From positions 23,461-58,531 of the forward strand of contig PS015265.1 in the NCBI GenBank assembly GCA_048213135.1: a DNA stretch of 35,071 nucleotides. Direction: 5' to 3'. Shown here one piece after another: positions 719 through 35,071 of this stretch (within the stretch, counting starts at the first letter, position 1; every line of letters starts with the position of its first letter). The stretch comes from Reclinomonas americana ATCC 50394. Its lineage: Eukaryota. The notes beneath the pieces were generated by a model, which did not search any database, was not told where the DNA came from, and worked only from the letters and a program-made list of their open reading frames with translations. Both the position numbers and the translations under genes were made by a program.

Positions 719-3700
719 ACGAGAACGAAATCGCCGTGCCAGTGTTGCTGGTCACCGCAAAGTTGGTCTGGTCGTTCGGCACCTGGCCCGTCAGCACGTT
801 GTTGTTGAGGCCGTTGCCGATGATGCCGTCGCCAAAGGTGGCCTGAGTGGTCGACGTGCCAATGCCGTTGATGCCGCGCACATCGACAAAGTAGTTGGTG
901 GCGTCAGTGAGGCCGCGGATCACAGCCTGCTGCACCGAGGTGGTGTTCTGGGTCAACGTGCTCGCCGTAGCCGCGCGCCACGACACCTGCCACTGGTACA
1001 CGAAGCCCTGGCCGCCAGTCTCCTGCGGCTGTCCCCAGCTGAGCCAGATCGAGGTCGAGCGCTTGAGCAGAAGGTTCGAAGACAGCGACATGATGCCGCT
1101 CGGGCGCACCGGCGACGTGGCCGTGGTGATGGTGATGGCCGACGCAGACCAGGCAGTCTGGTAGCCGTTGAACGACGACACGCCAATGCGATACTTGGTG
1201 TTGGAGCTGAGGCCGTTCACCAGCAGCGACGAGGTGGTCGAGCCGAGCGAGCCAGTGAACTGAGTCACAAACGAGTCCGGCACGAAGGCAGTCGAGGTGA
1301 CGTTGGTCAGGTTCTGCACCAGCACCTGCACGCCGACAAAGTTCGCGAAGCCGTCCGAGGTGGCCAGTGAGTACTGCGTGCCCACCACCGTCGAGGGGGT
1401 CGACAGCGTGAAGGTGGCGTAGCCGGAGCCAGTCGTGCCAGCCGAGCCGCCAGTGGTCAGAGCCGGCAGCGGGTACGGGCGCACAATCGAGTTGGCAATC
1501 TGCGACAGAGTGCCCGACTGAGCACCGTTCTGCGTCGAGGTCACACCAGAGTCCGAGCGGGTGTTGGTGGCCTGCACGGCGTAGGTGTACGACTTGCCCG
1601 GAATGGTCGGGAAGTTGAAGTTGGTGGTCAGCGTCGTCCACGTGTACGTGCGGTTGCAGTTGCTGGTGTTCTGCGTCACAACGTAGCCGTTGATCGAGGT
1701 GCCGCCAATGCCAATCGGCGACGCCCACGAGATGCTGGTCATGGTGTCCTGGTAGCAGTTGCCAGAGAAGCCCACACCGAGGGTACCAGCCACAGCAGCG
1801 CAGCCGGCGCTCGAGTTGGTGCCCTGCGAGTTCGCAATACCAGCAGCGAGCGTTGGGGCGGCCGGGGCGATCGGAGCATCGTCTGTGTGGTGGAGGAGAA
1901 GGGAGGCAGCGGTGGATGAGATACTCATACTCAAAAGAAGCAGATGGTTCCCTTCTCCCTCTCCCACTACCACTCCCCTCTCCTCTCCTCTCCTCTTTCT
2001 TTCCCTTTCCCTTCCCTCCCCCCTCCCCTCCTTTCCCCCCCTTTCACGCAACTGGTGTTGTGAGTGGTCTGAGTGATCGGGCCAGCAGCCGTGGCCGAGT
2101 TGGTCGACGTGGCAGTGGCGTACACCTGGTACGTGTACGACGTGTTGGCCGTCAGCGTCGTGTCAGCAGTGTAAGCGGCGGTGGTCGCCCATCCAGCCGG
2201 CAAGGTCACCGTGCCCACAGACACCGGGGTCGCGCTGCCCTGGCCGCGGAAGATAGTGAACACCGTCACCGGGTTGGAACCGAAACTCTGCGGAATCGTC
2301 CACTGCAGGAAGATGTTGGTGAGGCCGTACTGCGTCACGACCAGGCTGGTCGGCGGGTTCGGCACGACACCGGTGGCAGCCGGAGTGGTGAAGTTGATAG
2401 CAGTGCTGAACGCGCACGTCACCGGGTTGGCGGTGGTGCCAGCCGGGTTGAAGGGCGAGGTCGGGAAGGCAATCGAGAACTGGTTGCTGGCGCAGATCTG
2501 CAGGTTGACCGAGGTGCCAGCCGGCAGGCCAGTCACGTCAATGTAGTAGGTCGACAGGTTGTTGCTCCACGACGCCGCAGCGCCAGTGCCGTTGGTGGAC
2601 GGGATGGAGCTGGTGTCAATAATGACGGCAGAGCCGGCAGTGGCAGCAGTCACCGACGAGGCGCTGGTGGTCGAGTACACCACTCGGTAGTTGGCGACGT
2701 TCGGAGTCGGCGTCGTCAGGTTGCTCTGCGTGGCGCTCGAGGTGGCGGTGTTGGAACCGCCGACGCTGATCGGAGTCGAGAAGTTGAGGCGCACGCCAGT
2801 CGAGAACAGGCGCGAGTACGCCACGTTGGTGGGCGCAGCCGGCACAGAGCCGTTGTTGTCGGTGGTGGCCTGGATGGAGCCGGCCGCCGAGGCGGTGGTG
2901 TTGTTGTTCACAGTGATCTTGGCCTTGACAGTGTACTGCGTGGCAGCCACAAAGTTGTTGGCGGTGCCGCTCACAGTGAAGCCGGTGATCTGCTGGTAGA
3001 AGCCAGAGTTGTATGAGAACAGGCCGTAGAACGAGGTAGCGATGGTGCCAGCGCCAGTCGCGCCGGTGGTGATGGCAGGCTGGTCAGTGCTGGCGTTGGT
3101 CACCGTGTAGGCGGCAGTCGGCGCAGCGGTGGTGTCGCCCGTGCCAAAGGTGGCCGGGTAGTTGAAGGCGACGACAAAAGACGTCGAAGAGACCTGGTCC
3201 ACAGAGCCAGTGTACGGAGCCACAGTGTAGCCAGTCGGCGTGGCCGGCGCACCCGACGCCAGAGTCACCGTCACGGCAGTCGAGAACGTCAGGCTGGCAC
3301 CGTTGGCACCCGGAGTGCCGCTGCCGTTGTTGTAGGCCGTCGAGATGGCGCAGCTGGTGCCAGTCAGGCCAGTGACCTTGACGAGCACGCGGTTGCGCGA
3401 CAGACCAGCGCTGCCGGCCTGGATGCCGAAGTCGGTCAGGTCGGCAATGGTGGTGACCACCGTCACTGCACCGGTGCCGCAGTCCGACTTGACGTACCAA
3501 GACGGAGCACCGCCAATCACGCCCACATTGGCCGCCACACCCTCCCACTCCACCCACGCCGAAGTCGACGTGACGTAGCGCAGGTTGGACGACAGCGTCG
3601 GCGCCGCAGTCGACACCTTGGTGGCATCGGTGCCGCTGGTGGTCAGAGTGCCGCTCCAGGGAGCAGCCGAGCGGTTCACCTGCGACTCAGTCCACACGTT

Positions 3701-34391: not shown

Positions 34392-35071
34392 GTTGCGTTT
34401 AATAGGGGAAAGGGAGGGATTGGGAAAAGGAAAGAGAGATTAAGAGAGAAGGGTAGGAGAGAGGAAAGGAGACAGAGGGAGAGAGAGAGAGAAAGCAAGG
34501 AAGATAGAATTTACTCTCATTCTCTCTGTCTCTCTTTCTCTCCCTTTCTCCTCGCCCTCTCTTTCTCGTCTCTGCTTCCCACTGTCTCTTTTTTTCACTC
34601 TTGTCGCCTTCATTGTCTTTCTGTTTTCTTTCTTTCTGCTCTTATCTTGCTCCTTCTTCTCTGTTTCGCTCCACTCTCTTCTTGTTCTTTGCTCTCTTGC
34701 TTTGTTTGCTCTGTATCTCTTTCACTCTCACTCCATTTCTCTTCCTGTTCTCCCTTTCTCTTCCCTGCTTCTCTCTGCTTCCTTTCTCTCTCACTCTCCA
34801 TTCTGTTCTCTCTCTCTATCACTTCCCTATTCTCCATTTCATCTCTTACTTTCCTTCTGTTTTTCTCTGTCTCTCTCTCGCTCACCCGCTCTCTCTCACA
34901 CTCTTTCCTTTCTTCGCCTTTTCTCTCATTCTCTCTTTTATCTACTCTCTCCCTATCGCGCGCGCTCTCTCTCCCTTGTCTTTCATCCCTCTTTCCTCCC
35001 TCCCCTCCCTCTCCCTCTACTCCCTCCCCCTTGCCTCTCCCTTTCCTCACCCTCTCCCTCCTCCCTCTTCG

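Follow-up and report, generated by a model that had tools for sequence, protein, structure and literature searches.

Gene models point to GTTGCGT-type 5' splice sites as a second major donor class in a 35-kb window of the Reclinomonas americana genome

We analysed the 5' splice sites (donors) of the introns in a 35,071-nt stretch of the genome of Reclinomonas americana ATCC 50394 (contig PS015265.1, positions 23,461 to 58,531), which is called the window below. The gene models indicate that two classes of donor are used, and that they are intermixed within single genes. Ordinary donors carry a conserved G at +5 of the intron. Donors of the second class start with GTTG, most often as GTTGCGT, and their conserved G and T are found one position further into the intron. 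A GTTGCGT donor class had been noticed in a first-pass annotation of the same DNA, and on the evidence of the gene models we regard that observation as confirmed. All 15 donor positions listed in the annotation carry the reported sequence on the reported strand. Thirteen are GTTGCG sites, 11 of which continue with T; the other two are GTTGAGT at 28060 and GTTGCAT at 25106. As heptamers, GTTGCGT is found 11 times, and GTTGCGC, GTTGCAT, GTTGCGA and GTTGAGT once each.

The gene models were built by eye from three-frame views, independently of the first-pass annotation. A neutral-signal exon-chain predictor supplied with the codon statistics of the window was too weak, and by-eye modelling was used instead. 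The donor statistics are based on 37 donors in this one window, 22 ordinary and 15 of the GTTG type. Three probable ordinary donors (24869, about 23729 and 30583) were noticed later and are excluded from them. The annotation had put the GTTG share at over a third of donors, 15 of 41. Our models give 15 of 37, or 15 of 40 with the three later donors, and agree with this claim. GTTG donors are present in all seven intron-containing genes.

Base counts indicated that the conserved part of the donor is displaced in the GTTG class. Of the 22 ordinary donors, 19 carry G at +5 and 16 carry T at +6. In GTTG donors, C at +5 and G at +6 are each found in 14 of 15 cases, and T at +7 in 13 of 15. These counts bear out the earlier proposal that the conserved G and T lie at +6/+7, one position later than in ordinary donors. 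A matrix built from the ordinary donors gives the GTTG donors a mean score of -7.4 bits in register, which rises to +3.1 bits with one base skipped. T is the commonest base at +3, in 22 of the 37 donors overall. Seven ordinary donors out of 22 have it there (five GTTTGT, one GTTCGT and one GTTCGC), and three have A. The +3 position is mostly a purine in eukaryotic donors, and to our knowledge the preference for T in the window is unusual.

The exon side of the junction is also different. G is found at -1 in all 22 ordinary donors and in only two of the 15 GTTG donors (Fisher p = 2.9e-8). The exon composition at -2/-1 of the GTTG class resembles that at -3/-2 of the ordinary class. Under ordinary-class frequencies, the exon positions have a log2-likelihood of -59.6 with the shift and -68.8 without it. 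Given the contrast at -1, every donor fits a single frame, G-(G/T)-T-N-N-G-T. We infer that the GTTG class is read in a shifted frame, in which the whole motif would be displaced and the +1 G of the intron would stand in the place of the exonic G. The contrast at -1 and the common seven-nucleotide frame are new points of this analysis.

The first-pass annotation had allowed either a shifted or a bulged register, and had described the motif as the ordinary GTGCGT or GTGAGT donor with one extra T. In the bulged register, a standard U1 small nuclear RNA (snRNA) would read GUUGCGU as G|GU(U)GCGU, a GUGCGU donor with a U looped out (bulge +2/+3). The string is formally GTGCGT plus T, the match to the ordinary matrix is regained by skipping one base, and bulged registers have been validated in human cells, as described in the accessible text of PMC4856993. 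However, C9 of U1 would stay free for the last base of the exon, so a G would be expected at -1. The GTTG class has lost this G, which argues for a shifted register and no bulged T. GTTG donors also do not mirror the ordinary donors to which a T would have been added. GC stands ahead of the conserved GT in 14 of 15 GTTG donors and in three of 22 ordinary ones (p = 1.5e-6), GTGCGT is rare among ordinary donors (2/22), and the GTTG class is far more uniform. In addition, hardly any pairing energy with a human-type U1 is predicted, whatever the register. We consider a bulge under a standard U1 highly unlikely. The shifted half of the earlier proposal is supported by the likelihoods and the loss of the -1 G, and its bulged half is not; the likeness to an ordinary donor holds for the regained matrix match and fails in the composition ahead of the GT.

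The heptamer, rather than the hexamer, is enriched. GTTGCGT occurs 12 times in the window against 5.23 expected, and 12 or more copies were found in none of 100 shuffles. GTTGCG occurs 29 times against 22.6 expected, and 29 or more copies were found in nine of 100 shuffles. Every one of the 12 copies of GTTGCGT is in sense orientation with respect to the local gene, and a modelled exon ends at 11 of them. When the next base is T, 11 of 12 copies of GTTGCG are donors; with any other base, two of 17 are. Nine unused exonic copies of GTTGCG(A/G) are found on the sense strand, eight in WD40 genes and one in exon 8 of the FAM221 gene. The donor signal includes the T at +7. The remaining GTTGCGT lies upstream of gene B (Table 1) and is a candidate donor of an intron in the 5' untranslated region (UTR). 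A CTCAC...CACAG string about 69 nt 3' of it would complete such an intron.

Most of the individual junctions are supported by reading frame or protein evidence, in agreement with the annotation. Five of the 15 GTTG sites are placed exactly by protein homology, and seven are supported by frame, domain pattern or loss of homology. The remaining three (25013, 18733 and 26502) are weak, which leaves 12 of 15 upheld. The strongest evidence for single junctions comes from the FAM221 gene. In a homologue search, the FAM221 exon found one relative; the window's own protein was absent from the collection searched. With a FAM221 relative as query, 421 matches (E<=0.001) were obtained from 1.84 billion representative proteins. 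The spliced FAM221 model, built from coordinates, was aligned with the 13 best of these. Seven of its eight junctions are gapless against the 13 homologues, four with GTTG donors (25106, 25233, 25336 and 26020) and three with ordinary donors (25421, 25677 and 25781). The eighth, 25013, is ambiguous because the homologues leave a four-residue gap and an in-phase GTGCTC lies 6 nt upstream; the annotation had pointed to such an in-phase alternative GT, which we also find. A cut one base later (G|TT) was considered and rejected: with the sequence present at 25336/25406, the conserved frame of FAM221 would be lost.

Two other features of the FAM221 gene concern its donors. At 25100-25111 on the plus strand, GTTGCA is present as a tandem pair. 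The homologues favor the second copy, and use of the first (25100) would delete two residues; the pair is a possible alternative donor pair two codons apart. A 15-nt exon at 25406-25420 on the plus strand is preceded by a GTTGCGT intron and followed by a GTGCTT donor that has no G at +5. It is supported by the homologues residue by residue.

In the other genes, the junctions are constrained by frame and by domain boundaries. For nine of the 15 GTTG sites, among them 7094, 6348, 4135, 2052, 22357 and 34392, no other in-phase GT lies within 18 nt. Matches to fn3 are present in the exons of gene A. At its 6894 junction, splicing gives back a strand pattern that we take to be the regular one of fn3. 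In the GNAT gene, the match to Pfam PF13302 stops at profile position 95, which is the last residue of exon 1. In the frame of exon 2, a match starts at position 81 within the translated intron, and a gapless count from there makes the first residue of exon 2 position 96. The acceptor of the 34392 intron lies beyond the window, as the annotation said. The exon flanking 26502, described as a kinase tail, gave no match in a Pfam search. A mixed alignment of five exon peptides was used to look for proteins derived from expressed sequence tags (ESTs) that cross the junctions; it returned none among 6213 candidates, a weak blank from an unusual use of the tool.

Apart from their donors, the introns of the two classes are alike. 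All 35 introns that lie wholly within the window, 14 of them of the GTTG class, have GT...AG ends. Their lengths do not differ (median 73.5 vs 72 nt, p = 0.91). A CTCAC/CTGAC-like branch-site motif and a CT-rich tract are found within the final 32 nt of most introns in both classes (judged by eye, unscored), and acceptors are YAG in both (by inspection, uncounted). The shared length and 3'-end type confine the difference to recognition of the 5' end. From these features the introns appear to be genuine U2-type GT-AG spliceosomal introns. U12-type introns were rejected as an explanation: the donor heptamers and 3' ends fit neither the consensus RTATCCTT donor nor the TCCTTAAC branch site.

We also considered that the class arose by artefact or chance, through wrong models, retained introns or nearby GTs, or that it is the shared end of recently spread mobile introns. 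Three of the sites are weak, as noted above, and the 6894 intron is in frame and free of stops. The five homology-fixed junctions, the nine sites without a nearby in-phase GT, and the clear excess and strand bias of GTTGCGT stand against an artefact. A mobile, introner-like family was rejected. An all-vs-all blastn comparison of the 35 introns gave eight matches of 13-14 nt, all of low complexity, and none joined GTTG introns together; with only low-complexity sequence shared between copies, the introns do not form a mobile family. An origin of either kind is extremely improbable. The gene models, the heptamer excess and the homology-fixed junctions together bear out the claim that the GTTG-type sites are used donors that form a major class.

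Several of the longer introns are purine-rich in their 5' part and pyrimidine-rich in their 3' part. This is seen at 1883-2052 (minus strand) and at 28060-28296, 33695-34212 and 34392 to about 34650 (plus strand). The purine fractions of the 5' and 3' parts are 0.93 and 0.45 in the first, 0.69 and 0.21 in the second and 0.80 and 0.60 in the third. Such introns could fold into a long hairpin, with the two splice sites drawn close to each other.

Pairing calculations indicated that the two classes behave very differently with a human-type U1. Duplexes were predicted for the U1 5' end as given in PMC4856993. Ordinary donors average -7.0 kcal/mol, and their +1 G lies on C8 of U1 in 22 of 22 cases. 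GTTG donors average -1.3 kcal/mol, several of them being positive, and their +1 G is paired with C9 in only four of 15 optimal duplexes. With this 5' end, the good U1 pairing by which a shifted register is recognised is lacking in the GTTG class. Poor pairing of GUUGCGU makes a variant U1, as suggested in the first-pass annotation, more likely. Together with the GC stereotypy of the class, it leads us to predict that the U1 5' end is altered or that a second one exists. Hypothetical 7-mer guides were compared on the ordinary and GTTG donors, respectively. ACUUACC gave -4.5 and -0.4, ACGCACC -5.7 and -5.7, and ACGCAAC -3.3 and -8.4.

The explanation we prefer, to which we give about even chances, is that the two donor classes belong to one seven-nucleotide frame, G-K-U-N-N-G-U, read in a shifted register by an adapted U1 5' end. 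When K is G, cleavage would fall between the two Gs and the donor would be the ordinary G|GUNNGU, as in 22 donors. With U at K, the first GU would lie one base more 5', and cleavage there would give |GUUGCGU, as in 15 donors. The conserved G and U of this second class would then be at +6/+7, and a G as the exon's last base would no longer be required. A shifted U1 register would thereby serve as a major class instead of a rarity. A single U1 with a 5' end of about ACGCACC would bind both classes about equally. It mismatches the class with K = U, which would therefore require perfect pairing at its other positions. A second U1 of about ACGCAAC is the other option, and would explain the stereotypy more simply still. 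Both of these U1 5' ends are predicted only.

Two other modes of recognition have to be weighed against the single adapted frame. A dedicated second U1-like snRNA could have a 5' end fully complementary to GUUGCGU and leave the ordinary donors to a standard U1. Its role would be similar to that of U11 in U12-type introns, except that recognition of the 3' end would be shared. Eleven of the 15 heptamers are identical, the class has no exon consensus, and a human-type U1 suits the ordinary donors well and the GTTG donors not at all; an exact complement would reach -8.4 kcal/mol with the latter. The common G-K-T-N-N-G-T frame and the matching, shifted exon preferences nevertheless point to a single recogniser, and the two classes adjoin in the same genes. 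We consider a dedicated snRNA beside a standard U1 unlikely. The other mode would be independent of U1 pairing, with GUUGCGU read by U1C, Luc7 or SR-like proteins, or in a later check by U5, U6 or Prp8. The negligible pairing predicted with human-type U1 is consistent with this, and the introns are short (median about 73 nt), so that intron definition with strong 3' signals could assist. Base-specific conservation over seven consecutive positions, including +7, resembles RNA-RNA pairing instead, and makes recognition of this kind quite unlikely.

A number of points weigh against the adapted, shifted-register U1. The junctions come from gene models and homology, and the 37 to 40 donors sampled all belong to a single 35-kb window. 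Modelling by eye may have biased the ordinary class toward G|GT, and the probable ordinary donor at about 23729 has A at -1. A U1 of ACGCACC predicts that GC is favored at +3/+4 of ordinary donors, where it is seen in three of 22. T at +3, found in seven of the 22, mismatches either of the proposed U1 sequences. Good pairing in the shifted frame, which defines the known shifted-register sites, is not obtained with a human-type U1. The guide calculations discriminate poorly, as a free search over all 7-mers returned mostly GC-rich guides, and nearest-neighbour energies leave out U1C and other proteins. We tentatively propose, on the doubtful side of even, that the lineage has a natural two-register splice code, in which about 40% of introns would use the shifted donor and the U1 5' end would have been rewritten (about ACGCACC) or duplicated (about ACGCAAC).

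The GTTG class shares features with several known systems and matches none of them. In a shifted register, all base pairs between the 5' splice site and U1 move by one position, according to the accessible text of Tan et al. (2016; PMC4856993), which cites Roca & Krainer (2009). The same text describes a shifted-register test oligonucleotide and estimates the validated non-canonical registers together at 1.5% of human sites. As in human shifted-register sites, the motif of GTTG donors lies one base 3', the intron +1 G replaces the exonic G, the G/U is at +6/+7, and cleavage follows the GU independently of the U1 register. Unlike those sites, which are rare and have good shifted pairing with U1, GTTG donors account for 15 of 37, are dominated by GUUGCGU and pair poorly with a human-type U1. 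They share with bulged and asymmetric-loop registers (Roca et al., 2012; Tan et al., 2016) an apparent extra nucleotide between the GU and the G/U. In these registers the exon-side pairing is kept, whereas the GTTG class has lost the -1 G.

Like the U12-type system with its U11 snRNA, the window has a second stereotyped donor heptamer with no exon consensus, next to ordinary donors in the same genes. Unlike in that system, the donor misfits RTATCCTT, and no difference between the two classes is visible by eye in branch-like motifs or pyrimidine tracts. The GTTG share is also far above any minor-intron share of which we know. Strong lineage-specific donors are found in budding yeast (GTATGT) and in Ostreococcus, which has strong donor and branch signals. 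The GTTG class resembles them in its near-invariant extended motif. Relative to the cut, those donors retain the G at +5, and they are suited to the universal U1; neither holds for the GTTG class. In the related jakobid Andalucia godoyi, the accessible text reports 134 verified introns, all GT...AG; that genome is intron-poor, unlike this window. The accessible part of a paper on Rpl7a gives a Reclinomonas intron of 877 nt. A search of the literature on the motif and on jakobid or Reclinomonas introns, splice sites and snRNAs found no description of such donors or of a donor consensus for jakobids, a search in which boundaries given in supplements or figures could be missed.

Table 1. Donors of the GTTG type, the additional GTTGCGT copy, and the genes of the window
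Feature	Position	Strand	Remarks
GTTGCGT donor, gene A	7088..7094	-	77-nt intron to 7017; frame preserved; no other GT in phase within 18 nt
GTTGCGT donor, gene A	6888..6894	-	72-nt intron to 6822; sole in-phase alternative GT at -18
GTTGCGT donor, gene A	6342..6348	-	91-nt intron to 6257; penultimate residue of the exon is fn3 profile position 78 of 84
GTTGCGC donor, gene A	4129..4135	-	Phase 1; 91-nt intron to 4044; connects two long open frames
GTTGCGT donor, gene A	2046..2052	-	Phase 1; 170-nt intron to 1882; fn3 match stops about 14 residues short of the exon end (2053)
GTTGCGT, twelfth copy	18621..18627	+	About 100 nt 5' of the gene B start codon; candidate 5' UTR intron donor
GTTGCGT donor, gene B	18733..18739	+	140-nt intron; 4-codon first exon; plausible, weak
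GTTGCGT donor, gene C1, first intron	22357..22363	+	62 nt; frame kept, no alternative GT
GTTGCGT donor, FAM221	25013..25019	+	Weak; GTGCTC alternative at 25007
GTTGCAT donor, FAM221	25106..25112	+	61-nt intron; gapless against homologues
GTTGCGT donor, FAM221	25233..25239	+	57-nt intron; gapless against homologues
GTTGCGT donor, FAM221	25336..25342	+	70-nt intron; junction agrees with homologues residue by residue
GTTGCGT donor, FAM221	26020..26026	+	75-nt intron; gapless against homologues
GTTGCGA claimed donor beyond the ankyrin open reading frame	26496..26502	-	Weak; A at +7 as in unused exonic copies
GTTGAGT donor, GNAT gene	28060..28066	+	237-nt intron, the only one of the gene
GTTGCGT donor, AGC kinase domain	34392..34398	+	Match to solved S6K/Akt chains ends no more than four residues from 34391
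Gene A, large surface protein with fn3 repeats	1..8023	-	GTTGCG donors in 5 of its 7 introns within the window; continues past the window start
WD40 array	8300-18210	-	At least six intronless paralogues
Gene B, signal-anchor protein	from 18721	+	Second donor at 18936
Gene C1, small membrane protein	22279-23125	+	
FAM221 gene, conserved part	24922..26229	+	9 exons, 8 introns; GTTGC donors in 5 of 8
Ankyrin-repeat open reading frame	26598-27254	-	
GNAT acetyltransferase gene	27742-28530	+	Single intron
PH-domain AGC kinase gene (Akt/S6K-like)	30580..35071	+	Runs to the window end

The window is part of a eukaryotic draft scaffold. It contains seven runs of N, its G+C content is about 58% outside the gaps, its introns are short, and its spacers are CT- or GA-rich. 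The WD40 paralogues have about seven repeats each and a common Cys-rich C-terminal tail, and are separated by CT-rich spacers. In the AGC kinase gene, seven ordinary donors were counted, five of which begin GTT(T/C)G, together with one GTTGCGT donor. Its first coding exon (30580-30585 region, plus strand) apparently stops directly after the start codon, where a probable GTGCGC donor follows.

The ankyrin-repeat open reading frame is 66% identical to an EST-derived protein of the jakobid R. americana, the nearest named protein. Near its end, this protein matches another frame of the window DNA, which means that the nucleotide sequences must be close. The switch of frame suggests a frameshift in the EST or a close paralogue.

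No snRNA was found in the window: an Rfam scan at gathering scores gave no match. With E up to 1, Rfam gave only sub-threshold matches of microRNA or small nucleolar RNA type, at three low-complexity or purine/pyrimidine spots; such matches fall on the purine/pyrimidine hairpin of the intron that follows 34392. A transfer RNA scan of the window found none.

The pairing between U1 and the 5' splice site is among the most conserved RNA-RNA contacts of eukaryotes, and non-canonical registers are treated as rare. If the two-register reading is true, a free-living, intron-rich eukaryote would have a U1 5' end and a donor consensus that co-evolve away from ACUUACCUG and GURAGU, and would be the first case in nature to match the 'suppressor U1' experiment. 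This reading predicts an altered U1, and perhaps U6, interaction that should be readable from the snRNA genes. If the shifted donor accounts for at least a third of the introns in the genome, the organism would be a natural system for studying what sets cleavage when the U1 register and the GU disagree. Annotation of jakobid genomes would be affected as well, since gene finders trained on donors with G at +5 would score GTTG sites badly. Jakobids (Discoba) are a key lineage for the ancestral eukaryote, and their splicing rules bear on how much tolerance the ancestral spliceosome may have had.

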